Assembly: GCA_016176685.1 (NCBI GenBank)
Contig: JACOWS010000005.1
Coordinates: forward strand, 1 to 34,991
Source: Patescibacteria group bacterium
Lineage (GTDB): Bacteria > Patescibacteriota > Minisyncoccia > Phycocordibacterales > SBAW01
Reading direction: 5' to 3'
DNA: 34,991 nucleotides
Numbering within the stretch: the first letter of the stretch is position 1; every line of letters starts with the position of its first letter. A model generated the notes under the pieces. The model was given only the letters and a program-made list of their open reading frames with translations, was not told where the DNA came from and did not search any database. A program made the position numbers and the translations under genes. This document shows positions 3,214 to 22,054 of this stretch, piece after piece.

Positions 3214-3648
3214 ATGGCAGTATCAAAAAAGAGGAAAATAGGCGATAATGGCGAGGAAGTTGCCTGTAAATACCTTGAAAATAAGGGTTTTTCAGTAATC
3301 GAGCGCAACTATTGGAGGCCGTGGGGAGAGATAGATATAGTGGCTAAAAAGGGCTCTATTCTTAGTTTTGTAGAGGTAAAGTCAGTTTCTGCAGACCTTT
3401 CACGTGTAACTCCTCTCGAAGGCGGTTCACGTGGAACGTCCGCCGGATTGGCCGGGCGCGGTGGCCTTAGGCCGGAGGAAAATGTGCATCCGGCAAAGAT
3501 TAAACGCCTAAGCAGAGCCATTCAGACCTATTTATTGGAGAAAAAAGTCGGAGATGAGGTGGAGTGGCGTATAGACATTGCCTGTGTCTTTTTGGATTTT
3601 GACCTTAAGAGAGCTCGGGTGGAACACTGGGAAAACGTTATTTTTTGA
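3214..3648 (+). CDS. yraN: YraN (UPF0102) PD-(D/E)XK nuclease-family protein with an internal insertion
   Basis: G..GEEVAC.YL...GF..IERNY...WGEIDIVA...FVEVK; ATG at 3214 preferred over GTG at 3193. Confidence 0.88.
   Translation: MAVSKKRKIGDNGEEVACKYLENKGFSVIERNYWRPWGEIDIVAKKGSILSFVEVKSVSADLSRVTPLEGGSRGTSAGLAGRGGLRPEENVHPAKIKRLSRAIQTYLLEKKVGDEVEWRIDIACVFLDFDLKRARVEHWENVIF
3396..3438. promoter_or_regulatory. Two parS-like sites inside yraN
   Basis: Reverse complements AGTTACACGTGAAAGG (3396-3411) and CGTTCCACGTGAACCG (3423-3438). Confidence 0.5.
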
Positions 3649-3696
3649 TTTGTATGGTAAATTTGACAAACTCTCCTTTGCGAGCAGCGGGCTGCG

Positions 3697-3730
3697 CCCG
3701 TCGTAGCTCGCTTCGGCGAGCGAAGACGGG
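3697..3730. repeat. Small palindromic element overlapping the tRNA-Pro 5' end
   Basis: CCCGTCGTAG-CTCGC-TTCG-GCGAG-CGAAGACGGG; same layout as 6147-6180. Confidence 0.65.
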
Positions 3731-3797
3731 CCGTAGTATACCGGTAGTACACCTGCTTTGGGAGCAGGTAGACTGGGTTCGATTCCCAGCGGCCCGA
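3727..3797 (+). tRNA. tRNA-Pro(UGG)
   Basis: CGGGCCG/CGGCCCG, CCTGC-TTTGGGA-GCAGG, CTGGG-TTCGATT-CCCAG. Confidence 0.95.
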
Positions 3798-3888
3798 AAG
3801 CAAGCCGGTTCATGCTGGGTAACCCTCCCAGCGGCCCGAAAGCAAGCCGGTTCATGCTGGGTAACCCTCCCAGCGGCCCGAAAGCAAG
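3785..3888 (+). repeat. 42-bp tandem repeat (about 2.5 copies) starting in the tRNA-Pro 3' end
   Basis: Unit CCCAGCGGCCCGAAAGCAAGCCGGTTCATGCTGGGTAACCCT at 3785 and 3827, partial copy at 3869. Confidence 0.92.
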
Positions 3889-3889
3889 T

Positions 3890-4903
3890 ATGGAACGTAT
3901 AACACTTACAACCAAACCATCAGATGGTTATGCACTGCTTGACTCCGGCGGGGAAGAGAAGCTTGAGCGCTATGGCAATATGGTGCTGGCACGCCCAGAC
4001 CCGCAGGCGCTGTGGCCTAAAAACTTGCCGGAATGGAATCACCGCCAAGAGCGGGACCCCACCCTTGGCGGTGGGTGGGACACAGCAGATGCTCAATACG
4101 TTAGAGAGGGGAATAGCGGCCACTGGGTGGGGAATATACCAAAAGAATGGCCGATAGAATTTGGCGGTCTGCGCTTTTTGATTAGGCCGACTAGTTTTAA
4201 ACACACGGGCCTTTTCCCCGAACAGTTGCCCAACTGGGAGTGGCTTTCAAAGTTGGTTGTATCGGTGCTTGCGCTGAATGCCGGTGAGGAGACTGAGCCA
4301 CCCGCGAAGCGGGTAATAGGCTCCGAGGCGGCGTTCAGCGCAAGCACTTCTGCATCAGATAGGCTTGTTTCTGTGCTCAATCTCTTTGCCTACACAGGGG
4401 GAGCCACGCTTGCCGCGGCCAAGGCAGGGGCCAGTGTGGTACATGTAGACGCCTCAAAAACAGCAGTGGCCTGGGCGCGGGAAAATGCCGCCGCTTCAGG
4501 CCTGGCAAGCAAACCTATCCGCTGGCTCGTCGAGGATGTCTTGGTGTTTGTAAGGCGGGAGATAAAACGCGGTAACCGTTATGACATCATCATTATGGAC
4601 CCGCCGTCCTTTGGCCACGGGCCCAAAGATGAGTTGTGGAAGATAGAGGAACATCTTATCCCACTCGTGAAGGAGTGCGCGGAACTGCTGTCGGAAAAAC
4701 CGCTCGGTTTTTTGATAAACGGGTATGCGGCGGGATATTCACCGCTTGCATTTGCCTACAACCTGGAGCCGTTACTAAAAAAATATGGCGGTACTATCCA
4801 GTATGGCGACCTCACGATAGAAGAGCAGGCCCGTTCGACGCACTCAGGGCAGGGAAGTGAGCGGCTCTTACCTTGTGGCATTTTTGCCCGCTGGCAGGCT
4901 TGA
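3890..4903 (+). CDS. Class I SAM-dependent methyltransferase (RlmI/RlmK-like) with palindromic in-frame insertions
   Basis: LLDSGGEEKLERYG, FKHTGLFPEQ, VLNLFAYTGG, VDAS and MDPPSFG motifs. Confidence 0.88.
   Translation: MERITLTTKPSDGYALLDSGGEEKLERYGNMVLARPDPQALWPKNLPEWNHRQERDPTLGGGWDTADAQYVREGNSGHWVGNIPKEWPIEFGGLRFLIRPTSFKHTGLFPEQLPNWEWLSKLVVSVLALNAGEETEPPAKRVIGSEAAFSASTSASDRLVSVLNLFAYTGGATLAAAKAGASVVHVDASKTAVAWARENAAASGLASKPIRWLVEDVLVFVRREIKRGNRYDIIIMDPPSFGHGPKDELWKIEEHLIPLVKECAELLSEKPLGFLINGYAAGYSPLAFAYNLEPLLKKYGGTIQYGDLTIEEQARSTHSGQGSERLLPCGIFARWQA
4265..4347. repeat. In-frame hairpin element with a 33-bp core shared with recJ
   Basis: 19-bp arms at 4265-4283 and 4329-4347; core GGAGACTGAGCCACCCGCGAAGCGGGTAATAGG at 4288-4320. 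Confidence 0.85.
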
Positions 4904-4920: not shown

Positions 4921-6087
4921 CTAGCGGTGCTCTATAGCATCTTTTAGCTTTCCCAATTCTGCTTTTGCTGTGGAGCTTGCAAATGCCGCCTCCCCGTCGG
5001 AAAGGTTTTGTGATAAAAGTTCCGCGAGTCCTCCTTGGCCCTCTGCCGTCAAGCTGCGGTTTATATGCGCTATGGTAATAGCGCGCAGGTCGCGCTCGGC
5101 CGTTGAGGTGGCGGCGGTAGAGGTGACTATAATGCCGGCAAGCTTGCCGTCCTGTGCGCGCACCACCGCCCCGCCGGACGATCCCCCCTGCGAAACAACG
5201 GTTCCGCCTATGGAAAAAAGGTCTACCTGCTGTGGGTTGTCAAAGGTAAACAGTCCGCGCACGGCCGCATAGGCCGAAGTAATATACAAATTAAGCGTTA
5301 TCGTTTGTCCGTCAAGAAACCCGGCCGGGTATGCCGCCAGTAGCATACTGTCGCCCGGCGTTGGCAAGGAACCTGTCATGGCAATGAACGGGAAAGTGGT
5401 CGGGAAAGGAATACTCGGCCCTGTTGGCCCCGTAATGTGCAAAAAGGCGTAGTCGTGCTCCCCGGTGCCGGTCCCTTGCTCCTGTACTATCTGCGAAGCG
5501 TTGGCATCTACCCACGCGGGCGGCAGATACAATAATTCTGCACGGTACATAGCGCGCGCGGGGCTGCCGGTGCGCAGTACACAGTCGACATTGCCCTCTG
5601 TGGGGTAGTCTCGCAGTAAAAAGTATTGCCCAACGTGCGCGTTGGTAAGCACCACACCGCGGCTGTCGACCAAAACTCCACTGCCGGATATAGGTTTAAA
5701 AGAGCCGCCCGCTTTGGTGGTACATAAAATGTTCACTAACGCCTCGCGGGTTTGTGTGTTGAGGACGGTTGAGTCTATAGCGGGCGCGAGGGGCAGGGCA
5801 GGAGGGGTTGAGGGCGCCACTGGTGTTGCAATGGGCGCGGCGGCGGTTTTGTGCGCAGGGGTGGGCTCCTGTGGCGTTACAGGGGTACTTAGTGTGGGCG
5901 GCACCTCTGCTACAGTAGAGGTCGCTACCTCTACAGATACTTGCCACTCTCCTGCCACTGGAGTTTCTCCAGCCATTGGAGTAACTGATGTGTAAGTAGA
6001 GAGCGAGGTAAAAAACCCGCCAAGAGCTATTAAGACAGCGGTAGCAAACAGCGCAAGCTTCCCCAGTAGCGAATAAAAGAAATCCAT
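4921..6087 (-). CDS. Membrane-anchored trypsin-like (S1) serine protease
   Basis: N-terminal hydrophobic helix, P/T/A-rich linker, triad motifs TNAHV, HDYAFL and GSSGG; ATG at 6087. Confidence 0.82.
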   Translation of the reverse strand: MDFFYSLLGKLALFATAVLIALGGFFTSLSTYTSVTPMAGETPVAGEWQVSVEVATSTVAEVPPTLSTPVTPQEPTPAHKTAAAPIATPVAPSTPPALPLAPAIDSTVLNTQTREALVNILCTTKAGGSFKPISGSGVLVDSRGVVLTNAHVGQYFLLRDYPTEGNVDCVLRTGSPARAMYRAELLYLPPAWVDANASQIVQEQGTGTGEHDYAFLHITGPTGPSIPFPTTFPFIAMTGSLPTPGDSMLLAAYPAGFLDGQTITLNLYITSAYAAVRGLFTFDNPQQVDLFSIGGTVVSQGGSSGGAVVRAQDGKLAGIIVTSTAATSTAERDLRAITIAHINRSLTAEGQGGLAELLSQNLSDGEAAFASSTAKAELGKLKDAIEHR

Positions 6088-8275: not shown

Positions 8276-9805
8276 CTATCGTGCAAATTCGATAGCGCGA
8301 GTCTCCCGGATGACGTTTACCTTGACCTCTCCCGGGTATTTAAGCTCATTTTCGATGCGCATCGCGATGTTGCGAGCGAGTTCGCGGGCCGCAAAGTCGG
8401 TCATTTCGTCCGGTTTGACAAACACACGCACCTCGCGCCCGGCGGAAATGGCGTACGACTTTTCCACACCGGCAAACGAGTTGGCTATGGCCTCGATGTC
8501 GCCCAGGCGTTTGAGATAATTTTCGACACTGTCGCGCCTGGCACCCGGCCGGCCGCCTGAAATAGCATCCGCCACCTGCACGATAACCGACTCGGTCGTT
8601 TCGTATGGATACTCCTCGTGGTGAGACTGCATAGCTTTGACCACCTCTTCCGAGACGCCGAACTTCTGCAGTATTCGGCGGCCGATTTCCACATGGGTAC
8701 CCTGCACCTCATGGTCGAGGGCCTTGCCAATGTCGTGGAGCAAAGCACCCGCACGCGCCACGGCCGGGTTTGCACCCACCTCTTCGGCTATCATGCCGGC
8801 TAGGTGCGCCATTTCTATGGAATGCTGCAGAACCGACTGCCCATAGCTGGTGCGGAAGTGCAGCCGCCCCAATATCTGGGTCACCCGCGGGTCGAGGTTA
8901 AGCACCCCGGCTTCAAACGCCGCCGCCTCGCCTTTTTCTTTAATAATTTTATTTATCTCGTTCTTCGACTTTTCTACCGTCTCTTCAATTTTGGCCGGCT
9001 GTATGCGCCCGTCAATAATCAAGTTTTCAAGCGCAACGCGCGCTACGGCGCGGCGCACCGGGTCGTAGGAGGAAAGCACAATAGAGCCCGGCGTGTCATC
9101 GATAATAACCTCCACGCCGGTTGCACGCTCAAACGCTTTTATGTTGCGCCCTTCCTTGCCGATTATTTTTCCCTTAATGTCGTCGTTGGGGATAGTGATG
9201 GCGGTCGCCATCGTATCGGAGGCAACCGAGTTGCCAAGCCGGTGTATAGCGGTGGTGAGTATATCCTTGGCGCGACGCTCCAGCTTTTCCAACCCTTCGC
9301 GCTCGAGCTTTTGCGTGCGGACCATCAAGTCTTCGCTCGACTCACGCTCAAGCTCGGCATAGAGTTGCCCCAACGCGGCCTCTTTGGAAAGTCCCGCAAC
9401 CTTAGCGAGCTCGCCCGCGCGCTCGGCAAGCAATGCATCAGCTCGCTCTTTTACCGCCCTTACCTCCTCGATGCGCGCCTTAATGGCGCCCACCTCGCGG
9501 TCGAGCTCCTGCTGTTTTTTTTCGAGCGTTTCCTCACGCTTAAAAATGCGTTCTTCTTGCCGCGCAACCTTGTTCTCCTCCTCTTTTAGCTCCGCTTCCG
9601 CAGCGACCAACTTTTGCTTGCCCTCCTCTTCTGCGGCTACGGTTATTTTCTTCGCCTCTTCGCGCGCGTTAAAAAGGATCTGCCGTATTTCAACCTCGAT
9701 AGAACCTTTGCGCGACAAAACCAAAAGCCAGCGGAATACATAGCCGATAGCCGCTCCCAAGAGGCCCGAGAGGCCTAGGAGTAAAAATACTATTTTTAAT
9801 GACAT
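8276..9805 (-). CDS. rny: Ribonuclease Y
   Basis: N-terminal TM helix, coiled coil, KH domain (KGKIIGKEGRNI), HD domain (LLHDIGK), RPGARR. Confidence 0.96.
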   Translation of the reverse strand: MSLKIVFLLLGLSGLLGAAIGYVFRWLLVLSRKGSIEVEIRQILFNAREEAKKITVAAEEEGKQKLVAAEAELKEEENKVARQEERIFKREETLEKKQQELDREVGAIKARIEEVRAVKERADALLAERAGELAKVAGLSKEAALGQLYAELERESSEDLMVRTQKLEREGLEKLERRAKDILTTAIHRLGNSVASDTMATAITIPNDDIKGKIIGKEGRNIKAFERATGVEVIIDDTPGSIVLSSYDPVRRAVARVALENLIIDGRIQPAKIEETVEKSKNEINKIIKEKGEAAAFEAGVLNLDPRVTQILGRLHFRTSYGQSVLQHSIEMAHLAGMIAEEVGANPAVARAGALLHDIGKALDHEVQGTHVEIGRRILQKFGVSEEVVKAMQSHHEEYPYETTESVIVQVADAISGGRPGARRDSVENYLKRLGDIEAIANSFAGVEKSYAISAGREVRVFVKPDEMTDFAARELARNIAMRIENELKYPGEVKVNVIRETRAIEFAR

Positions 9806-10014
9806 AGGCGATTATTGCTAACCGCTTATGCCCCGAGCTCTTCCGTTTTTGCCGCGCCACAGGGGCGGGTCGCTGTGATTATTGCACGCAGAATGCTCGT
9901 GTGTTTAGTGCTTTCACAGAAATATTCGTTACGAGTGGAGCAAGAGCGGAAAACATAGATTAAAGTGTTGAATATAAACGATATGCACGCGAACAAACAT
10001 AGCAGAACACCCTT

Positions 10015-10043
10015 ACCATACCAGAAAAGGTGGCTTTCCGCAA
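10015..10043 (-). promoter_or_regulatory. Putative rny promoter, implying a leader of about 200 nt
   Basis: Minus strand TTGCGG-17 nt-TATGGT. Confidence 0.45.
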
Positions 10044-10068
10044 CCTAAGAAAAACGGAAACTATATAC

Positions 10069-10341
10069 CTACTCACCCTGAACCTTAAAGTAGTAGCCTA
10101 TGATGAAGCCGAGTGGCCCCGAGAGAATACCAGAAACGGCAAGTAGCATATCCTTATAGTCTGTTACAGCAAATCCCTTGTAAGCCGCAATAGCCAGCAC
10201 TATGACAATAACCCCCAAATAACCAACAACATAATAAAGGGCTATTTTACTTCTCGTATGTTCTCGGTGTTGAGATAGTTTAAAAGCCCGTTGTGTGGGC
10301 GGCAAATATTGGTCAAGTTCTACATTGCCGTTACTAGCCAT
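10069..10341 (-). CDS. Passenger: two-TM membrane protein (90 aa)
   Basis: Two hydrophobic helices; stop codon lies in the left TIR. Confidence 0.7.
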   Translation of the reverse strand: MASNGNVELDQYLPPTQRAFKLSQHREHTRSKIALYYVVGYLGVIVIVLAIAAYKGFAVTDYKDMLLAVSGILSGPLGFIIGYYFKVQGE

Positions 10342-10342
10342 A

Positions 10343-10558
10343 TTAAAGTTCTTTCACTTCTATAGCGTAACGCTTACCGTCAGCGTCCTCTTTGACGATT
10401 TTGTTGTCTTTGGCAATATCCAAAAGCTTCATTCCTTTTAGAAGTACATCAACAGGAGTGGTATCAAAGTTTATTGCAAGCTCATTCAACTTCTTCAAAG
10501 CCCCGTTGGTAAAATTAACAGTTAGCTTGTCTTCCTTTTTTGTAGTTTCCTCGGCCAT
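10343..10558 (-). CDS. Passenger: 71-aa protein, possible ribbon-helix-helix
   Basis: KLTVNF strand followed by two amphipathic helices; ATG at 10558. Confidence 0.6.
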   Translation of the reverse strand: MAEETTKKEDKLTVNFTNGALKKLNELAINFDTTPVDVLLKGMKLLDIAKDNKIVKEDADGKRYAIEVKEL

Positions 10559-10580
10559 GATTTTAGTATAGCAAATTGCC

Positions 10581-10706
10581 TTATTTCTTGCGCTCCCTAC
10601 GGGTTTTTTTCTTAGACTTACCAATAACACCAAGTGCCTCGTCAAAGCCGAGGTTGATAGGGACGTGGAGTTTGGATTTGCGCCCTCGTGGGTCTTTCTT
10701 TTTCAT
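10581..10706 (-). CDS. Passenger: 41-aa very basic peptide
   Basis: MKKKDPRGRKSKLHVPINLGFDEALGVIGKSKKKTRRERKK; ATGA overlap with the upstream ORF. Confidence 0.5.
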   Translation of the reverse strand: MKKKDPRGRKSKLHVPINLGFDEALGVIGKSKKKTRRERKK

Positions 10707-10861
10707 GAGCACTTCTTGTACTTTAACAAGATGCTACTTAGTTCCGATTCTATCGTACACACTTTCACCAAAAAGCTTCCGGTTGTAAGCCCAAAAAGGA
10801 ACCACGCCAAGACAAGCACTATAGTTAGTTTGAACCAGTTCTCTTTTAGAAAGCTTTTCAT
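10703..10861 (-). CDS. Passenger: 52-aa single-TM protein
   Basis: MKSFLKENWFKLTIVLVLAWFLFGL...; ATGA overlaps at both ends. Confidence 0.55.
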   Translation of the reverse strand: MKSFLKENWFKLTIVLVLAWFLFGLTTGSFLVKVCTIESELSSILLKYKKCS

Positions 10862-11460
10862 GCGGTCAATGCCTTGTAAGATATTTTACCACGCTTGGCG
10901 ATTTTTGCTGTAGCCAAGTCAAACTTTATATCCATGCCGTTCTGTCGGTCAGGAATAGGAAACGCTCTCATGCGACTTCCGCGTTCTGTCATGCCCATTA
11001 CCGCTGTCTTTTTAGAAAAGCCGTACTTGCGGTTATTTTTACCGCCGAGATAGGTTTCGTCTGCCTCCACCACGCCTATCAATTTGCCCCGACCTTGCTT
11101 TAGAGCCTCGCGGATACGCATATCCATAAACCAAGCGGTCTTTTGGATTACGCCGACCTGCTCCGCCAACGAGATAGAGGAGATACCCTTCTTGGAGGTT
11201 GTAAGGAGGTAGATAGCGATAAACCACTTTTGCATAGGTAACTTGCTCTCGCCAAAGAGCGTACCCGTCTTGATAGTAAAATCGCGCTTGCACTTGTCGC
11301 AACGATACCGCTTGTCGTCAGCAAAGCGCATTATCTTAGTGTGCTTACAATGCGGGCAGAAATCCCCCTTAGCAAAGCGGATAGCCTCAAAATGTTTGCG
11401 GCAAGCCGCCTCGTTATTGAAATGCCCCGCAAACTGCGCCAATGTCTTAAACTCTTTCAT
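10858..11460 (-). pseudogene. IS1595-family transposase with an apparent in-frame internal deletion
   Basis: Zn ribbon CPHC...CDKC, GTLF..SKLPMQKWF.AIYL...KKGISS, VEADETYLGG and the terminal ISYKAL are present; the TD/HTN/E catalytic segment is absent; 200 aa. Confidence 0.8.
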
Positions 11461-11633
11461 ACTCCTATCTTATACCCGTTAGTTAGGGTAGTCAAATGCT
11501 GGAAATAGTACAAAAGTAGACAACTACTTTGTCAAATCAATGAACTGTTTATAACTTCTTGCAATATTCACCTGCCTAGTGGTAGTATGTTCGTACGTCA
11601 CCTCGCCCGGCCTTGCGCCGGGTTTTTCCGTCC

Positions 11634-12206
11634 CTACTTTGTACGCGGCTTGCGCTCAACTGCGTCCCTAATTGAGTCAAGAGATACAAACCAAGAACCT
11701 TCTCTTATTTCCCAAGCGCAATTGTTTTTATAAGCAACAAACTTGATACGTTTCTGTTGCTGTAGGATATTGTCTTTGGTACGCATGAAATCACTATCAC
11801 CGCTTGCTATATAGACCATATCTAGATCTGACAAGTCCTTCATTATTTCGTCATGCATCTCGACATCAAAGTTACATTTATTTTTGAAACCTTTTGGGTC
11901 GGACGAGTCGCGTAGTTTTTTGAGAGGTTTACCTGTCACCTCAAAACCCTCGCGCTCCCAATATTTAATCAATGCTTCGCTGATGGTCTTGGCTGGCTCA
12001 TACTTTGGAAGTCCTTTATAAATACGAGCGTGTACCACCTCATTAACTTCTGCAACCCACTTGTGGAGTTTTACATAGTCTGTCAACCACCCTGTGGCCC
12101 TACCGCGTTTGAAAAGGTTTGAGTCATCAATATAAATACCCACCTTCGGTTTAGGTGGAAGTGACGACAAGAACTCATAGGCAAACTCATGTAGAGGCCG
12201 GTACAT
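11634..12206 (-). CDS. Passenger: NYN/LabA-family PIN-like nuclease
   Basis: IYIDDSNL, KCNFDVEM and ASGDSDF motifs. Confidence 0.85.
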   Translation of the reverse strand: MYRPLHEFAYEFLSSLPPKPKVGIYIDDSNLFKRGRATGWLTDYVKLHKWVAEVNEVVHARIYKGLPKYEPAKTISEALIKYWEREGFEVTGKPLKKLRDSSDPKGFKNKCNFDVEMHDEIMKDLSDLDMVYIASGDSDFMRTKDNILQQQKRIKFVAYKNNCAWEIREGSWFVSLDSIRDAVERKPRTK

Positions 12207-12282
12207 AAAAACGCCCTACGGGCGCAAGGATATAATACCACACTTTTTTAACTTTCAACCTATTGTGGTGTACAATCGGGGC

Positions 12283-12462
12283 ATGGAACAAGACACTAAA
12301 CGTAAGTGGCGTTGGGGCGCAATCGTTTTATTCATTTTTGGCCTGGCTATGCTATGGGAGGCAACTCAACAGACCGAGCCAATTAGCATTGCTACGGCGC
12401 TCATTGTCGGCGGTCCGCTCGTCTTTTTCATGGGACGCGAGCTTTTCTGGAAAAAACGCTAG
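12283..12462 (+). CDS. Passenger: 59-aa two-TM protein
   Basis: TACAAT-6 nt-ATG; two hydrophobic segments; stop overlaps the right TIR. Confidence 0.6.
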   Translation: MEQDTKRKWRWGAIVLFIFGLAMLWEATQQTEPISIATALIVGGPLVFFMGRELFWKKR

Positions 12463-16299: not shown

Positions 16300-17952
16300 A
16301 TGCATGTGGAAGAGCGGATGCTCGGCGACTTTCTGGTAGACCGCGGACTCTTGTCGCGCCGCAGTATAGACGATGCGCTTAAGAGGGCGGGAGGCACGCC
16401 GCTCTACGAGGCACTGCAAGGGCTGGGGTTAGTAGACGAAGATGAGCTGCGCCGCGCCGCGGCACACGCCATGGGCGTCACGTTTGTGGAGTTTGCGCGG
16501 CACGAGATAGAGCAAGAGGCGCTGTTTCTCATCCCCGAGCCGCTTGCTCGCGCACGCAACATGCTGGCCTACCGGCTTGGCGAGCAGGGGCTCGAGGTCG
16601 CACTGCTCGACCTTGCCGACCTTGCGGCGCTCGAGCCACTGCACCTCTCCCACAGGGTACTGCCGCGGCTTACCTCGCGGCACTCGCTCACGCACGGGCT
16701 CTTGCATTATCAAAAATTATTGAAGGAAAAATTTGCCGCAGTCTTGGTACATAGCGGCGATGCGGTCGAGGCGCTTTTGCACCACGCGCTCCTTTCCCGC
16801 GCGCACGGGGTCCACATCGACCTTAAAACTACCGGCGCTCTGGTGCGCTACCGCATTGGCCACGCGCTCGAAGACGCGATGGAGTTGCCCGCGCACATCG
16901 GCCAAGCCCTTGCCGACAAACTTAAACTGCTCGCAAAGCTCTTGCCCGCATCGCGCGCAATGCAAGAAGGCCGATTTAAGATTGAAAAAAATGGTGAGCG
17001 ATACGCGGTGCACGTCTTTGCCGGCCCGCGGGTAGATGGCCTGCCTGTGGGCAATGCAGGCGAGCGCATTACCTTGCGCTTGGCGCGCGAGTCCGCGGGG
17101 CACGGGGGCTTTACGCTTGAATCACTTGGTTTACGCGGCAAGGCACTCGAGGATGTGTACGCCGCGCTGTTTGGCAGGCCCGGCTTGGTGGTGGTCGCGG
17201 GCCCTAAAAAATCAGGTGTGAGTACGCTGCTCTACACGCTGCTCGACCTGCTTAACGCACCTGCACGCACCGTAGCCACCGTGGAAGAAACAATCGAGCA
17301 TCGCCTGCCGCATGTGATGCAGGTAGAGATAGATTCGGCCGGCGGTGTGGACACCGCCGCCTCTCTGCGCGCGGTACTCAAGCAAGACCCCAGCGTAGTG
17401 ATGGTCGCCAACCTTCGCGATAGCAGGGTAGCCGCACTCGCGGCTTCGGCCGCATCGTGCGGCGTCATGGTTGTTGCAGGGCTTGAGGCCAACTCTGCAT
17501 CGGAGGCAGTGGAGAGGCTGCTTGGGTTGGGGGTGCCGCCGCTTACGCTTGCATCCACACTGCGCGCGGTGGTGTCTACCCGCCTGGTGGAGAAGTTGCC
17601 AGAAGGTGCCGCGCGCACACCGCTTGCCCGCGCCGACCTTGCCGTGTTTGAACCGTATGCCGACTTCGGCCGAGTGCTCGCGGCCCTTAAAGAAGAGGGG
17701 CTGGTGGAGAAGGGGTCGCAATGGAAGGATCTGGTCTTTGGTGTGGGGGCGGGGGATGGCGTAGTGGGGCTCCAGGAGGTCATGCCCATAACCGAGCCCA
17801 TAAAAGAGCTTATATTGCGGGGCGCCGGGGCAGAGGAGATTGAGCAAGTGGCAAAGACAGAGGGGATGCTTTCTATACTAGAAGACGGGCTATGTAAGGC
17901 CGCAGAAGGAATAACCAGTATCGAGGAGGTATCTCGGCTCTTTACCGAGTAA
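16300..17952 (+). CDS. PilB/GspE-like assembly ATPase homologue with degenerate catalytic motifs
   Basis: MshEN-like N-terminus, VRYRI, QEGRF, Walker A GPKKSGVST, ATVEETIEH, LRAVLKQDP, C-terminal GITSIEEV. Confidence 0.82.
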   Translation: MHVEERMLGDFLVDRGLLSRRSIDDALKRAGGTPLYEALQGLGLVDEDELRRAAAHAMGVTFVEFARHEIEQEALFLIPEPLARARNMLAYRLGEQGLEVALLDLADLAALEPLHLSHRVLPRLTSRHSLTHGLLHYQKLLKEKFAAVLVHSGDAVEALLHHALLSRAHGVHIDLKTTGALVRYRIGHALEDAMELPAHIGQALADKLKLLAKLLPASRAMQEGRFKIEKNGERYAVHVFAGPRVDGLPVGNAGERITLRLARESAGHGGFTLESLGLRGKALEDVYAALFGRPGLVVVAGPKKSGVSTLLYTLLDLLNAPARTVATVEETIEHRLPHVMQVEIDSAGGVDTAASLRAVLKQDPSVVMVANLRDSRVAALAASAASCGVMVVAGLEANSASEAVERLLGLGVPPLTLASTLRAVVSTRLVEKLPEGAARTPLARADLAVFEPYADFGRVLAALKEEGLVEKGSQWKDLVFGVGAGDGVVGLQEVMPITEPIKELILRGAGAEEIEQVAKTEGMLSILEDGLCKAAEGITSIEEVSRLFTE

Positions 17953-18018
17953 AAATAGCAAAAATAGGCGAAATATCCTTATTTTAAGGTGTTTTTTGTA
18001 TATTTTGTGCCTATTTGC

Positions 18019-18047
18019 TTGACAAATGTCAAGATTGGGTGTATACT
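18019..18047 (+). promoter_or_regulatory. Sigma70 promoter P1 with a palindrome over the -35 box
   Basis: TTGACA-17 nt-TATACT; CTTGACA-AA-TGTCAAG at 18018-18033. Confidence 0.7.
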
Positions 18048-18104
18048 AGTAACAGATACTTCAGCATAGGGTAGGTCGCAGCTCGGGGTCCCAAAGAGAG
18101 GGGC

Positions 18105-18133
18105 TTGACAAGAAAGACCGACTATGCTATACT
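18105..18133 (+). promoter_or_regulatory. Sigma70 promoter P2
   Basis: TTGACA-17 nt-TATACT with extended TG. Confidence 0.75.
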
Positions 18134-18139
18134 AAAAAA

Positions 18140-18620
18140 AGTTAACGTCGAGGCACCCTAAAATAGTTTGAACGGAAACAGTCTTTTAGAGGAAGGTTGT
18201 GACCTAGAGCAAGCTCTATATATAGATATAGAAAAGCGGCCGGGAAACACTCTTAACCTTAAAGAGCAGTTTCTCGGCCGCTTTTCTTGTTAAGAGAAGT
18301 GCGGGAGCGAAAACAAATTAAACAATGTCGCTCTCCCGCTTCTCTCCGCAAGAGAGAACAAATAGTTAGTACATTCGTTGGAAGCAAGCATAACCACCTT
18401 GTTTCCAAAAATGTCCTCGCTACGACAGTATGTGCAGTCGGTGAGTGGGACGGAACTTTGACAGATGAATAGCAGCAAGGAGCAAAGTGAAAAAACTGCT
18501 CGCAAGAGCGATCACAATGTTGTTCCTCGTTGCCGGACTGACTTCACCTAGGTCGGTACGGTACGAGGGATCGCATCCCGCGCGTGTCGATGTTCTTCGC
18601 CCCGATTGGCGGGGCACTCA
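18140..18620 (+). ncRNA. Candidate long structured leader or ncRNA
   Basis: No credible ORF; long hairpins at 18230-18287 and about 18293-18346; boxA-like GAACTTTGACA at 18453. Confidence 0.4.
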
Positions 18621-18632
18621 ATGGAGGAAAAA

Positions 18633-18749
18633 ATGTCGAAAAAAGTTGTAAGAGAAAATTCTTGGGCCGAGGCATTTATTGCCTTGGCCGTCGGCATCGC
18701 CATCGCCATCGCCATCGCGGCGACGTTTTACCTCTCCTTCCCCCACTAA
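18633..18749 (+). CDS. 38-aa single-TM peptide
   Basis: GGAGG-5 nt-ATG; MSKKVVRENSWAEAFIALAVGIAIAIAIAATFYLSFPH. Confidence 0.65.
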   Translation: MSKKVVRENSWAEAFIALAVGIAIAIAIAATFYLSFPH

Positions 18750-18796
18750 TAAATGTGGGGGAAGCCGGCGAGCGTGACTTGGTTGTCGCGCTCGCC

Positions 18797-18835
18797 AAAA
18801 GGTTTTTGAGCGAAACCTTTTCAAAAAATTCGCTC
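18797..18835 (+). other. Predicted H-type pseudoknot 1
   Basis: Stem 1 AAAAGGT/ACCTTTT, stem 2 GAGCGAA/TTCGCTC, linker CAAAAAA. Confidence 0.6.
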
Positions 18836-18991
18836 CTTTATACCCCCAACGAGCACAGTGCTGGGAAGGGGTTTGAGTAAAAAGTTAACCCGCCCGCGCC
18901 TGGGGCAGAAAATACAGGCCAAGGCAGGTAGTAGCGCACCTGCCGAAAGGAGACTCTCACTGAAGCCAAGCGGCTGAGAGAGTTTAAAGAG

Positions 18992-19246
18992 ATGTATACA
19001 CCCAAGACAATTTTGCGCGCTGCCCTCCTGTTCGAGGGCGAGCAGGCCATGGGCCTGCTCGCGGCCGAGCACGGCTGCCAGGCCCTTGCCGCGGAGATTC
19101 TCCGCGGCGAGCGGCCGGCGCAATCGCGCCGGCCGCTCATGGCGGCCGAGCAGGCCGCCCGCGTGGCGGCCCTGCGTGCCGCCCGCGCCGCCGAGAAGGC
19201 GGCGTTCGCCGCCAATTTGGTGGCGCTCAAGGCCAAGTACAATTAG
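18992..19246 (+). CDS. Ala-rich hypothetical protein (84 aa)
   Basis: Strong GC3 codon bias; AAGGAG separated from the ATG by a hairpin. Confidence 0.65.
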   Translation: MYTPKTILRAALLFEGEQAMGLLAAEHGCQALAAEILRGERPAQSRRPLMAAEQAARVAALRAARAAEKAAFAANLVALKAKYN

Positions 19247-19258
19247 GCCCCTTGAGCG

Positions 19259-19291
19259 AAGAGGTTGAAAGGTCCTCTTAAAAAACTTTCA
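19259..19291 (+). other. Predicted H-type pseudoknot 2
   Basis: Stem 1 AAGAGG/CCTCTT, stem 2 TGAAAG/CTTTCA, linker A6. Confidence 0.65.
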
Positions 19292-19337
19292 CGCTACGCA
19301 CTCCGGCGGGGGAGGAGTGCAAATAAGGAGAGACGCC

Positions 19338-19427
19338 ATGTACATGGTTCTCCCAAATGGCTTGGTGGTTCCTGTGACCACCAAGCACGAGGCGGCCAAG
19401 GTCGCCTCGACCGAACGCGCTCGTTGA
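19338..19427 (+). CDS. 29-aa peptide
   Basis: TAAGGAG-7 nt-ATG; MYMVLPNGLVVPVTTKHEAAKVASTERAR. Confidence 0.5.
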   Translation: MYMVLPNGLVVPVTTKHEAAKVASTERAR

Positions 19428-19437
19428 GCGTGTTCGG

Positions 19438-19468
19438 GCACCCAAGCTCTCTGTGCAAAACGGCTTGG
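19438..19468 (+). other. Predicted H-type pseudoknot 3
   Basis: Stem 1 GCAC/GTGC, stem 2 CCAAGCT/GGCTTGG, linker AAAAC. Confidence 0.5.
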
Positions 19469-19822
19469 TAGTTTGTAGGTTCTTCGGGAAGGAAGAGATA
19501 CCGAAGTATGGAGGCGACAAGTGGTTACTGTCGTCGCCTCTCTTGAGCTCATCATTAAAATTAATGACGGTTTCAAGAGGGGTTGTGTAAAAAAGCAATC
19601 CCTAAAGTTCCGATTTGCTGGCCCTAACACAAGTCGCCACCCACTGTATTCGTGGGAGGTTGCGGCAACTCCGGCAAATCGATGCTTCTGTTAGTAGTGT
19701 GTGCGTAATCTCCATGACCACTCCTGGAAAGGAGCGGCTCTTGCCTGTCGATACGGAGGCAAGTCCTACGGGAGACCCACTAGCCGTGGCATTCCCGCTG
19801 CGGCAAATTCATGGAGAGCGAG

Positions 19823-20257
19823 ATGACCACCAAGCATTTCTTTTATTCGGTGGGGGCTAACACCCCGAAGTCTGGTTTGAATTACCTCACCCACTCCGGA
19901 AGAGTGTGGTGGGACGGCAGCCGTGAGGCTACCGTCAATGCGGCGCAGGCCGCACTTGCGGCCTATGATGTGGCAGGAAACTGCCACGCACGGGCTATTG
20001 AAGTTGAGGTCTCGGAAGAGATCGGGTTGATCTCACGGATCAACGTATGTGATCTCCGCTCGATGTCTCGCGACATCGAGTCGGAAGACCGCCGCGACTG
20101 GTGGGTCGGCGGCCACGAGGTCGCCGACCCGAAATGGGCCCAGGTCGACTCAGTAAGAGTCGACCACCCACAACAGGGCTACCCGTACGAGTGGGAGCTC
20201 AGAGTGGGAGGCAGGCTCGAGCCTGAACCTCCCACCCTTATTGACGGCGAGGACTAA
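19823..20257 (+). CDS. Hypothetical protein (144 aa)
   Basis: GGAG-6 nt-ATG at 19823; no family recognised. Confidence 0.65.
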   Translation: MTTKHFFYSVGANTPKSGLNYLTHSGRVWWDGSREATVNAAQAALAAYDVAGNCHARAIEVEVSEEIGLISRINVCDLRSMSRDIESEDRRDWWVGGHEVADPKWAQVDSVRVDHPQQGYPYEWELRVGGRLEPEPPTLIDGED

Positions 20258-20274
20258 ACCAACCCTCGCCGTTT

Positions 20275-20303
20275 CGGTGATTGGAGCACCGTAAAAACTC
20301 CAA
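20275..20303 (+). other. Predicted H-type pseudoknot 4
   Basis: Stem 1 CGGTG/CACCG, stem 2 TTGGAG/CTCCAA, linker TAAAAA. Confidence 0.65.
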
Positions 20304-20329
20304 AAGAAGTTCTTCGTTCGAATTCACTT

Positions 20330-20660
20330 CGGCGGGTGCACGAGGTCCAAACCTTCCGCACCCGCCCCCTTTCAAGCGCTTTAGGCCCTAGGCCTAGAGT
20401 ATTTGAAAGGGGAACTTATTCTCCTCTTGCATGACACTTGCACACCCAGGTGTCGTGCGGGCGCGGCGGCTGTCTAGTAACTAATACGGTAATGCGTATA
20501 GCGAACGGCAGCCGCCGATGCCCTCTTTATGTTTGCTGCTGATGTAGCCCCCAGGGAGCTGTGAGTGGAATCCTCTACACTTCTATACGCTTAATGTAAA
20601 TCGCCTCGCGCGTTTTTACGCTGAGCTTGTTGAAGCGCCATTCGCAGCTCCGTGGCGACT
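20330..20660 (+). ncRNA. Candidate structured RNA of back-to-back hairpins
   Basis: GGCGGGTGC/GCACCCGCC, CCCTTTCAA/TTGAAAGGG, TGCATGACAC/GTGTCGTGCG, GGCGGCTGTC/GGCAGCCGCC, GGAGCTGTGAGTGG/CCATTCGCAGCTCC; several G-U pairs on the plus strand. Confidence 0.45.
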
Positions 20661-20668
20661 ACCCGCCC

Positions 20669-20699
20669 AAAAACCGCCTCCATTTCGGGGGCGGTTTTT
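20669..20699. terminator. Bidirectional intrinsic terminator
   Basis: AAAAACCGCCTCC-ATTTC-GGGGGCGGTTTTT. Confidence 0.75.
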
Positions 20700-20710
20700 A
20701 CGTTGGGAGA

Positions 20711-20977
20711 TTAGCGGTAGACCTCATGGTCGCCCACGGCAAGCAATATCACTTCGCCTTTGCTTTTGTCAGTATAGGAAAACACAATGCGGTAACGATA
20801 GTTGACCGAAAAACCACGCCGACCCGCGAGAGGCCCTTTAAGTTTGTGCACATGAAGCCACTCATGATTCATTGTGTTTTTGAAGTCCTCTATTCTTTCA
20901 AATGCTTCGTGTTGAAGCGCGAGCGGAAGTTTCTTGAATTGTCGCCTAAACTGCGGGGACAAATGGACAAGCAACAT
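20711..20977 (-). CDS. RelE/ParE-superfamily toxin (YafQ-like mRNA interferase)
   Basis: F.RQFKKL, HKLKG.L.G...FSV..RYRIVF, LL.VGDH..Y; directly downstream of the antitoxin. Confidence 0.82.
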   Translation of the reverse strand: MLLVHLSPQFRRQFKKLPLALQHEAFERIEDFKNTMNHEWLHVHKLKGPLAGRRGFSVNYRYRIVFSYTDKSKGEVILLAVGDHEVYR

Positions 20978-20980
20978 GAA

Positions 20981-21196
20981 TTAAAGGTCAAGTAGTTTCC
21001 GAAGGTCTCCCTTAAGAATTTTCCCTTCGGAAACTTCGCGTTCTGCACGCAGTACTGCCTCGACTGCTTCATCTTCGGCAAGTTTGTCGAGCGCTTTGCG
21101 CATGACCGCAGCGCGTGAGGAGCCGACCCCCTGTTTTACCAATGTATCGAGGCGGTCTTCATGGTCTTTGGACAACGGGACGGATATGGTGCTCAT
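20981..21196 (-). CDS. Ribbon-helix-helix antitoxin (71 aa)
   Basis: MSTISVPL...SSRAAVMRKAL with acidic tail; 3 nt from the toxin start. Confidence 0.78.
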   Translation of the reverse strand: MSTISVPLSKDHEDRLDTLVKQGVGSSRAAVMRKALDKLAEDEAVEAVLRAEREVSEGKILKGDLRKLLDL

Positions 21197-21298
21197 AAGA
21201 GTAAAAGTATGAATAATTAATATGAATTTATAGTACTCTTGCCGGTAGTGTGCGTCAAGCGGCTTTTTCGTTTCTGCGAGGATGCTATAGTAACGAGC

Positions 21299-22054
21299 AT
21301 GGCACGCAAGCGCCTCGTGGTTGGTAATTGGAAGTCCTATATAGAGTCGCCAAGCGAGGCACACGCGCTTGCTTTGGCTCTGCGCCGCAAGGCGAGAGCA
21401 CTCCCGGGGGTTGAGGTGTGGCTCGCGCCACCCTACCCGCTTTTGCCCGCGGTTGCCGAGGTGCTAGAGAGTTCTCCCATAAAAGTGGGTGCGCAAGCGC
21501 TCTCTGCAAGCCCCGGCGGCAAGCACACCGGCGAGGTCTCTGCGAACATGCTCAAACAAGTGGGCGCACAATTTGCCTTGGTGGGCCACTCGGAACGCAG
21601 GGCACAGGGCGAGGGCGACGAGCAGGTGCGCGCGCAACTTTTGCAGGCACTCCAAGCAAAACTTACGGCGGTGTTGTGTGTGGGCGAGCACGAGCGCCTG
21701 CAGGACGGCTCGCACTTTTCTTTTATTGAGCGGCAGCTTGTTGTCGCGCTTGACGCGCTCCCTCCTAAAGCAAAAGTAATTGTTGCCTACGAGCCCGTGT
21801 GGGCAATAGGGAAGAGTGCGGAAGAGGCGATGCAGCCGCAAGACCTTGAACAGATGGCGATTTTTATACGCAAAACTTTGGTCGAAACTTTGGACCGCAG
21901 CGCGGGGCTCAAGATACCTATACTCTACGGCGGCTCGGTCGAGTCCGCCAACACACACGCGCTTTTGATTGGGGGCGGCGTCAACGGTTTTTTGGTCGGG
22001 CACGCCAGCGTGGAAGCCGAACCATTTTTGGAAATTATAAAAGCATGCAAATAG
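21299..22054 (+). CDS. tpiA: Triosephosphate isomerase
   Basis: GNWK, TGEVS, GHSERR, AYEPVWAIG, YGGSV; ATG at 21299. Confidence 0.96.
   Translation: MARKRLVVGNWKSYIESPSEAHALALALRRKARALPGVEVWLAPPYPLLPAVAEVLESSPIKVGAQALSASPGGKHTGEVSANMLKQVGAQFALVGHSERRAQGEGDEQVRAQLLQALQAKLTAVLCVGEHERLQDGSHFSFIERQLVVALDALPPKAKVIVAYEPVWAIGKSAEEAMQPQDLEQMAIFIRKTLVETLDRSAGLKIPILYGGSVESANTHALLIGGGVNGFLVGHASVEAEPFLEIIKACK

Follow-up and report, generated by a model that had tools for sequence, protein, structure and literature searches.

Structured RNA modules between small open reading frames at the pilB-tpiA interval of an Adlerbacteria genus

The stretch of DNA analysed here (34,991 nucleotides, referred to as the window) is contig C5 (GenBank JACOWS010000005.1, assembly GCA_016176685.1) of a patescibacterial genome of 549,984 bases that is 98% complete. 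Between pilB and a convergent ParE-like/RHH gene pair it bears a locus of about 2.7 kb (18018-20699), which comparison with relatives indicates to be one instance of a conserved single-locus array in the pilB-tpiA interval of a genus of Candidatus Adlerbacteria (Patescibacteria, or candidate phyla radiation, CPR). The array opens with a strong conserved promoter, followed by a terminator-like hairpin, a leader RNA of about 136 nt, and then a variable number of units. One unit consists of a short 5′ untranslated region (UTR), a small open reading frame (ORF) that often encodes a tiny membrane protein, a stable structure at or just past the stop codon and, usually, a conserved hairpin of 15 bp. 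The order pilB, leader, variable stretch of 0.7-5.6 kb, tpiA was found in 17 of the 20 loci fetched from relatives. In the window each of four small ORFs is followed by a compact H-type pseudoknot motif (knot), and a preliminary description, made from the sequence alone, had proposed an ORF-plus-pseudoknot cassette system on this basis. The small-ORF cassettes with a structured RNA after each have stood up to comparison, as have the knots themselves, but the genus-wide constants that define the array are the leader RNA and the 15-bp hairpin, neither of which had been singled out.

The knots are tentatively read as 3′ protective or processing modules of a processed polycistronic RNA; among the functions earlier suggested for them, one in processing or stability appears most in line with the context. 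The array would be transcribed as one polycistronic RNA, which would be cut between units: a host endonuclease would act on the conserved hairpin and, where a hammerhead ribozyme occupies that slot, the ribozyme would make the cut itself. Each cut would leave a knot or GC hairpin at the 3′ end thus formed, and this structure would block 3′-to-5′ exonucleases, so that each small ORF survives as its own mRNA. A unit would contain a cut module (the 15-bp hairpin, model R2, or a hammerhead) and, upstream of it, a stable 3′ module (a GC hairpin or a knot), sometimes accompanied by a hairpin with the stop codon in its loop, and a small predicted hairpin in the 5′ UTR precedes each ribosome-binding site. 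The leader and the terminator-like hairpin before it would probably gate or license read-through. The restriction of promoters to the 5′ end, with a terminator-like hairpin at the 3′ end, was counted in favour of a polycistronic RNA; the presence of genes for RNase Y (8276-9805, − strand, in the window) and, elsewhere in the genome, for RNase III, an RNB-family exonuclease and PNPase was counted in favour of its processing. What the comparisons show is the anatomy of the locus, the more than random occurrence of the knots, the conserved and covarying pairing of the leader, of the 15-bp hairpin and of stem 1 of the first knot, and the association with hammerheads; that the array is transcribed, cut and protected, and that stem 2 of the knots folds, is inferred.

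The leader RNA and the ends of the array

The leader RNA (model R1) occupies 18454-18590 of the + strand, where it scores 120.4 bits. It takes the shape of a long irregular hairpin with a variable apex (18515-18577), on whose 5′ side are conserved blocks and a small hairpin capped by a GNRA loop. When relatives were searched with the DNA of the locus, the best-conserved part proved to be 18350-18575 together with the promoter, and none of the knots. R1 matches 33 of 80 genomes of the genus, with a single copy in most, and outside it three genomes of other genera among 149 sampled from the order. The main hairpin is conserved as a structure: over its 24 pairs in 27 sequences, 96.1% of cells are paired, compared with 85.1% in shuffles, and double changes are seen at 12 pairs and in 61 cells, against 6.1 and 14.5 respectively in shuffles, with none of 500 shuffles reaching as high. 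In slid controls the paired cells drop to 36-49%. Because changes in loop length break any reading frame, the leader was taken to be an RNA and its interpretation as a coding sequence was rejected.

Comparison with Rfam of the leader in the window and in the loci of 21 relatives yielded no family. Signal recognition particle RNA, RNase P RNA, transfer-messenger RNA (tmRNA), 6S RNA, the T-box and the GEMM and guanidine-III riboswitches were considered as identities for it and set aside by eye and for want of any Rfam match. The cis-acting antitermination RNAs put of phage HK022 and EAR (the eps-associated RNA) offer the closest analogy of position: they too are conserved structured RNAs found just past a promoter and ahead of a long, hairpin-filled unit, and the leader of the window is placed after a terminator-like hairpin. 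It differs from them in having no sequence or model similarity, and in that it recurs within some arrays (those of G081, G078 and G067). Two fuzzy anchor matches to the leader core occur inside each of the arrays L045 (G078) and L056 (G081), and a short frame that recurs in L056 hints at a third leader copy, each copy standing before a different ORF. Exact 22-nt matches to the leader core in two haloarchaeal genomes (L077 and L080, Haloprofundus and Natrialba) were taken for chance or coding coincidence.

Upstream of the leader, the tandem promoters given in the preliminary description are in place on the + strand: P1 (18019-18047) and P2 (18105-18133, with TG before the −10 element) both have the sigma-70 form TTGACA-17-TATACT, matching at 11 of 12 positions, and they are the sole promoter-like sites on the + strand between 17000 and 22000. 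The sequence of P1 is kept in relatives, and P2 is also present in the metagenome relative L096. Between the promoters and the leader, also on the + strand, lies a long terminator-like hairpin followed by TTTTCTT (18233-18295), which looks like a candidate attenuator or the end of a small RNA of about 150-240 nt. A hairpin of −15 kcal/mol or lower ending at a T run was found in 18 of 22 loci, and by reading about 13 of these lie in the promoter-leader interval. Since most loci have a terminator-like hairpin with a U run between promoter and leader, entry to the array is probably regulated, and the leader may license read-through of what follows. A small TATATA hairpin precedes the hairpin at 18233-18295 and has the same place in relatives. 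Just beyond it, the arms of a hairpin at 18303-18340, also present in L096, carry the same letters as stem 2 of the first knot and enclose a 17-nt A-rich loop.

The opposite end of the array is marked by a + strand hairpin at 20663-20699, with an A run on one side and a U run on the other, which folds as 13 bp ending in U5. It was found by folding and is absent from the list produced by the terminator scan; it agrees with the earlier statement that the unit closes at a terminator, and is likely a two-way terminator common to the array and the convergent ParE-like gene. Folding also places three more long hairpins on the + strand at 20429-20650, where the stretch 20544-20657 is kept in the relatives L094 and L096.

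The inter-ORF hairpin and hammerhead ribozymes

The second constant of the array first came to light as a segment of the window (20362-20411) matched twice in the genome G010. Iterated nhmmer searches from a slice of the window gave 31 instances on the + strand, in the loci of 15 relatives and in the window, all of them between leader and tpiA. The hairpin (model R2) has 15 bp, with a conserved base and a covarying top. Across the 31 instances 94.8% of cells are paired, against 84.4% in shuffles, and double-change cells number 49 against 16, levels that none of 500 shuffles attained. Two positions retain a G-U pair (in 28 and 29 of the 31 sequences), which marks the hairpin as strand-specific, and R2 scores on the opposite strand are about 25-30 bits lower than on the array strand. 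R2 matches 31 of the 80 genus genomes; among the matches listed, with the exception of one weak match, these fall on one contig per genome, and where a leader was found they adjoin it and lie downstream of it. Instances are spaced about 300-450 nt apart, and directly before each is a GC-rich hairpin without fixed sequence. In clean units, of 250-460 nt, a + strand ORF begins about 40-60 nt after one R2 hairpin and stops 30-74 nt before the next. The window itself holds one canonical instance on the + strand (20361-20418, 54.3 bits), preceded by a GC hairpin at 20331-20366, and one weak variant (19532-19588, + strand, 8.4 bits, E 0.16), likewise preceded by a GC hairpin.

In some relatives a candidate catalytic RNA is found in or beside the array. 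Matches to Hammerhead_3 with complete cores, scoring 32.5-41.3 bits, were obtained in the arrays of G011 and G007 and twice in that of G067; the loci of relatives were scanned by E-value, and these scores lie under the Rfam gathering score of 48.5. The type III hammerheads with complete cores lie at 1292-1346 of L053 and 5186-5239 of L057 on the − strand, and at 4239-4323 and 9463-9538 of L054 on the + strand. Throughout the genus there are 13 Hammerhead_3 matches in 12 of the 80 genomes, one of them above the gathering score, and seven of the 13, from six genomes, are on the same contig and strand as the leader at a distance of 0.4-3.8 kb. No hammerhead was found in the window or in its genome. 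The hammerhead of G011 follows an ORF and its GC hairpin and precedes the next 5′ UTR, which is the usual slot of the conserved hairpin. The locus L054 (contig C12 of G067) contains stretches 5 kb apart that are 87% alike (308-662 with 5292-5687, and 3635-4321 with 8842-9536), each duplicated copy having both a leader RNA and a hammerhead; it lacks the pilB-tpiA synteny, and the array may here have been duplicated or have become mobile.

Polycistronic RNAs of prophages have been reported in which hammerheads border individual genes, and every site was cleaved in vitro (Perreault et al. 2011, PMC3088659); a review proposes the same processing role while stating that it is unproven (PMC6765202). 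The prophage gene blocks, as that report describes them, consist of one-way variable genes, mostly of unknown function, split by small structured RNAs that are proposed to divide a long transcript into mRNAs of one gene each (PMC3088659), and the resemblance extends to the type III hammerheads that occur in arrays or beside the leader in six genomes of the genus. In contrast to those blocks, the window has no hammerhead, and the usual separator is a non-catalytic-looking 15-bp hairpin together with a GC hairpin or knot; also, the array is not in a prophage but at a fixed chromosomal site among housekeeping genes, and it has a dedicated leader RNA. Among the papers listed in a literature search, none tied hammerhead ribozymes to CPR bacteria, though the supplements of PMC3088659 could list CPR-like metagenome examples.

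Intercistronic RNase III sites and 3′ stabiliser hairpins are also known from the early region of phage T7, the repetitive extragenic palindromic (REP) elements and the stabilisers of the puf operon. Such systems share with the array tandem strong promoters, a run of small genes, a structure after each gene and a final terminator, and processing would in both cases leave a protective 3′ structure. The array departs from them in that an H-type knot can serve as the protective module, a conserved hairpin peculiar to the family separates the units, and gene content turns over between species. The principle that structured RNAs separate the genes of a long transcript is thus already known; what is new is that a fixed chromosomal site in a CPR genus combines a leader of its own with rapid turnover of units and with modules, H-type knots and hammerheads among them, that can stand in for one another. 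No description of the array, leader, hairpin or knots was found in a literature search that included Adlerbacteria noncoding RNA, structured RNA of Parcubacteria and Patescibacteria, and CPR integrons and attC sites; this, and the absence of any Rfam family, accords with the earlier suggestion that the system is undescribed.

Pseudoknots past the stop codons

The four + strand ORFs of the window have the lengths and positions earlier assigned to them, and codon usage like that of genes. ORF1 (18633-18749, 38 aa, GGAGG 5 nt upstream) encodes a small hydrophobic protein; it is followed by ORF2 (18992-19246, 84 aa), ORF3 (19338-19427, 29 aa, AAGGAG 7 nt upstream) and ORF4 (19823-20257, 144 aa, or 148 aa if read from 19811). 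Their codon scores (codon-usage log-odds per codon) are 0.208, 0.238, 0.216 and 0.184 respectively, where true-gene segments have a mean of 0.21 and off-frame segments one of −0.51; the non-coding stretches of the locus score negatively in all six frames. The label of orphan suits ORF4, for which protein searches gave a self-match only and the ESM Atlas no usable match, but not ORF2, which has one homologue (85 aa, 70% identical). Pfam returned at most sub-threshold matches for ORF1-4, and ORF4 matches no family. About 33% of 18018-20699 is coding, and the fold z-scores of non-coding stretches (−4.71 for 18750-18991, −4.15 for 19428-19822 and −13.42 for 20258-20699, compared with −1.29 for a pgk coding control) agree with the earlier characterisation of the locus as more than half non-coding and dense in hairpins.

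Each ORF is followed on the + strand by a knot whose pairs are all Watson-Crick. In the order stem 1, loop 1, stem 2, loop 2, loop 3, these are PK1 (18797-18835; 8 bp, 3 nt, 6 bp, 0, 8 nt), PK2 (19259-19291; 6 bp, 1 nt, 6 bp, 2 nt, 6 nt), PK3 (19438-19468; 4 bp, 0, 6 bp, 5 nt, 6 nt) and PK4 (20275-20303; 5 bp, 1 nt, 6 bp, 0, 6 nt). They begin 47, 12, 10 and 17 nt past their respective stop codons, within the 10-50 nt previously given, and coordinates and complementarity were found to be exact. They share a topology and no sequence, as had been claimed. PK1 has in addition a GC-rich hairpin directly on its 5′ side (18767-18796, + strand, by folding). No T run follows any of the four, and the terminator scan places no intrinsic terminator there.

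The stop codons themselves are enclosed in predicted structure. Sequence reading and folding place the ORF1 stop codons (TAATAA) in the loop of a + strand hairpin at 18740-18761, those of ORF2 (TAG) and ORF4 (TAA) in the loops of hairpins at 19224-19258 and 20244-20272, and that of ORF3 (TGA) at the apex of a 12-bp hairpin at 19411-19437. The same arrangement as in these four units out of four was seen in three units of L096 and in the PK1 units of G047 and G095; in one L096 unit the stop codon lies within the stem 1 loop of PK1 itself. In relatives the slot just past the stop codon is usually filled by a plain GC-rich hairpin. The four knots thus appear to be the window's version of a stable structure at the stop codon, and knots in general one of several interchangeable modules for the slot just 3′ of it.

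It is very unlikely that the knots are a neutral by-product of a locus rich in hairpins and A runs, in which overlapping hairpins happen to mimic knots. Such an origin would be in keeping with the extreme hairpin density (z down to −13.4), with the slightness of PK3 (a stem 1 of only 4 bp and a second loop of 5 nt) and with the fact that a 'knot' in the relative L041 is better read as a plain hairpin; moreover the strict descriptor used for counting, including its rule for A-rich linkers, was fitted after the four motifs had been seen. That descriptor nevertheless finds four knots on the + strand of the locus and none on its − strand, whereas 500 dinucleotide shuffles of the same locus gave a mean of 0.004 (498 with none and two with one). 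Counted over both strands of the whole genome it finds 10, and the six outside the locus are scattered through the other 1.1 Mb, several of them inside genes, so that knots of this kind are not equally frequent elsewhere. Enrichment also holds with generic descriptors: without the A-rich rule there are 227 matches genome-wide and five on the + strand of the locus, where 0.54 are expected, and a tighter generic descriptor gives 23 genome-wide, two of which are in the locus. All four knots stand at the same place relative to the stop codon. On these counts the motifs are real and far from chance.

Recurrence in relatives argues in the same direction. PK1 forms a family of five copies, in the window, in G047, in G095 and twice in the metagenome contig L096, and is found after three unrelated ORFs; a 65-nt query with PK1 against the 80 genus genomes recovered true homologues only in G095 and G047, the remainder being noise. 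Across the five copies stem 2 does not change on either side, the linker is 6-12 nt long, and stem 1 shows one compensatory, two-sided change, from A-U to G-C. PK3 is kept in L096 after a different ORF, and a further knot-shaped family is common to G043 and L096.

The position of the knots invites a translational explanation, in which stop-loop hairpin and knot would act together on the terminating ribosome, to affect pausing, termination or recycling, coupling or recoding. All four stop codons of the window lie in a hairpin loop or apex with the knot 10-17 nt further on (47 nt for ORF1), the same is true of three units in L096 and of those that contain PK1 in G047 and G095, and known recoding stimulators have this H-type geometry, with a third loop rich in A. 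We consider this explanation unlikely all the same. The usual recoding spacer is 5-9 nt, which the spacers of 10-17 nt in the window exceed; read-through would meet an in-frame stop after three codons for ORF2 and 16 for ORF3, and each of the six frames has a negative codon score both in 19470-19808 and in 20304-20660. The next start codon comes 45-350 nt later, and more distant arrays carry a plain GC hairpin that begins past the stop codon.

It is highly improbable that the knots bind a ligand or protein, either as small riboswitches of the preQ1-I kind or as type III antitoxin-like RNAs directed against a protein encoded nearby. The compact H-type fold with its A-rich linker does resemble preQ1-I aptamers and ToxI repeats, and ORF4 is without known function. 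However, four knots without a common sequence imply that there is no common ligand pocket, and they are found 3′ of ORFs rather than 5′ and are not tandem repeats of one unit. The preQ1-I family (RF00522) was unmatched, both at gathering score in the window and at E up to 10 in 17900-20800, and the knots lie 10-47 nt past stop codons, with the next start codons 46 to more than 340 nt away, and not in 5′ leaders of queuosine-related genes, where they would overlap the ribosome-binding site. The antitoxin function put forward in the preliminary description does not hold up either: successive knots are 150-800 nt apart and are not tandem repeats of about 36 nt, a self-search of the locus gave short inverted self-matches only, and Pfam found no ToxN/AbiQ-type gene among ORF1-4, with ORF4 matching no ToxN-like or other family. 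In topology the knots are also like the pistol ribozyme, which shares with the preQ1-I aptamer a hairpin of 4-8 bp whose loop pairs with a 6-nt stretch beyond an A-rich linker. They differ from both in giving no Rfam match at E up to 10 (pistol being RF02679), in having no core nucleotides conserved among the four and in their location 3′ of ORFs, and from pistol in the lack of P2 and P3 helices. More generally, Rfam at gathering score finds nothing in the whole window except four tRNAs outside the locus, matches at E up to 10 in 17900-20800 are at chance level, and a tRNA/tmRNA scan found none in the locus; the Rfam scan earlier proposed as a check therefore gave no family for the system.

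Several observations weigh against the knots as 3′ modules of a processed polycistronic RNA. The predicted stem 2 shows no covariation in any knot, and the case for it rests on invariance and on the improbability of four independent complementary pairs; single stems are weak alone (−3.6 to −8.1 kcal/mol), and nested folds in wider context draw in part on bases that the knots would use. The 80 genus genomes contain no homologue of PK2 or PK4. Nor are knots a general feature: a relaxed scan of the variable regions of 17 relatives (33 kb) gave 11 knots on the + strand and three on the − strand, compared with 14 and seven in their flanks (86 kb), so that the excess in the variable regions is only about twofold. 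No conserved hairpin follows PK2, and a cut site is thus not evident there, and a plain 15-bp hairpin is by itself no known specific RNase signal. Finally, the strong hairpin at 18233-18295 could end most transcripts ahead of the array; given its place between promoters and array, a single long transcript is unproven and probably conditional.

Unit turnover, known systems and genomic setting

The content of the arrays changes rapidly. Among 96 candidate ORFs in 18 arrays, 15 belong to six families common between arrays, and these occur at differing ordinal positions; the first ORF past the leader is often hydrophobic and of 38-90 aa. The most instructive case is L096, a metagenome contig with a backbone about 88% identical, whose whole locus is a mosaic of the modules of the window. 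In it the 5′ UTR of ORF1 and PK1 are each present in two copies, which enclose two different small membrane ORFs; there is no ORF2 unit (18881-19290), and the right junction of this gap coincides with the final base of PK2; another ORF takes the place of ORF3 between the same 5′ UTR and PK3; and PK1 stands between an ORF and a canonical R2 hairpin, the slot filled by a GC hairpin in relatives. Contigs from four DNA sequencing runs have mosaic joints with short sides of 20-42 nt, and were treated only as a lead, which L096 bears out.

Such exchange raises the question of whether the elements work at the level of DNA, as recombination substrates at the boundaries of units in a store resembling an integron or a phage hyperplastic region, with RNA structure being secondary. 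The array does consist of one-directional units without promoters of their own, behind a common promoter and with highly variable content (15 of 96 ORFs in shared families); the L096 mosaic shows ORF bodies swapped between conserved UTRs and a junction at the 3′ end of PK2; and a ParE/RHH pair lies at the array's end, toxin-antitoxin pairs being often seen in integron arrays. The likeness to integrons further includes the single locus, ORFs mostly of unknown function and an imperfect hairpin with conserved base and variable top after each ORF. However, there is no recombinase at the locus or integrase adjacent to the array, the sole Phage_integrase-family (PF00589) match in the genome being on contig C4, and, judged by eye, the base of the R2 hairpin (CCCTTTCAAG...TTTGAAAGGG) does not seem to fit the attC R''/R' cores RYYYAAC/GTTRRRY. 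Units are smaller than those of integrons (about 300-450 nt), the kept G-U pairs and the 25-30 bit strand asymmetry indicate a transcribed strand, hammerheads work on RNA, and ordinary homologous recombination between repeated RNA elements could give the shuffling. A DNA-level function is therefore judged quite unlikely. TIGR (tandem interspaced guide RNA) arrays were also considered and rejected on unit size and ORF content.

A broader proposal would combine both levels: the array may be a genetic element of a new kind, a gene-cassette store punctuated at the RNA level, whose interchangeable modules (H-type knots, GC hairpins, the 15-bp hairpin and hammerheads) would process the units into separate mRNAs and also serve as portable homology for swaps between lineages, with the leader licensing read-through and the knots representing new compact bacterial 3′-end caps. 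This is put forward as speculative and rather doubtful. In that case the leader could work by antitermination in cis, or could be a ribozyme or riboswitch that has escaped recognition.

Whatever the role of its modules, the locus is of interest in a tiny genome (about 550 kb), since the genus keeps there 1-6 kb of which two-thirds is structured non-coding RNA, with near-consensus promoters beside a pilus motor gene and fast-changing small, often membrane, proteins. The maintenance of so structured a locus with proteins that change so fast points to an actively maintained, variable function; that this function concerns the cell surface, or interactions with a host or with phages, is a guess. 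The locus yields three conserved candidate RNA motifs, covarying or at least recurrent: the leader RNA, the inter-ORF hairpin and the knot family. Should protection of 3′ ends prove to be what the knots do, bacteria would have in them a compact equivalent of exonuclease-resistant structures. Neighbourhoods that hold hammerheads are, according to a review, of the kind in which new ribozyme classes were found (PMC6765202).

The genes surrounding the array encode NusA, PilB, the ParE-like/RHH pair, TpiA and Pgk. The gene pilB (16300-17952, Pfam T2SSE 1.3e-58) is its 5′ neighbour. The ParE/RelE-like ORF (88 aa) and the RHH ORF (127 aa) lie together at 20711-21364 on the − strand, both with matches below Pfam cut-offs; the pair sits between the array end and tpiA and is missing from the close metagenome relative L096. 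The window also contains, at 1372-2847 on the − strand, a gene of the poly(A) polymerase/CCA-adding family, which with that for RNase Y makes two RNA-metabolism genes whose products could act on an array transcript. A stretch of low GC content (0.42-0.45) at 10001-12300 of the window holds a fragment of an IS1595-type transposase (10858-11460) and an NYN-domain gene (11634-12206).

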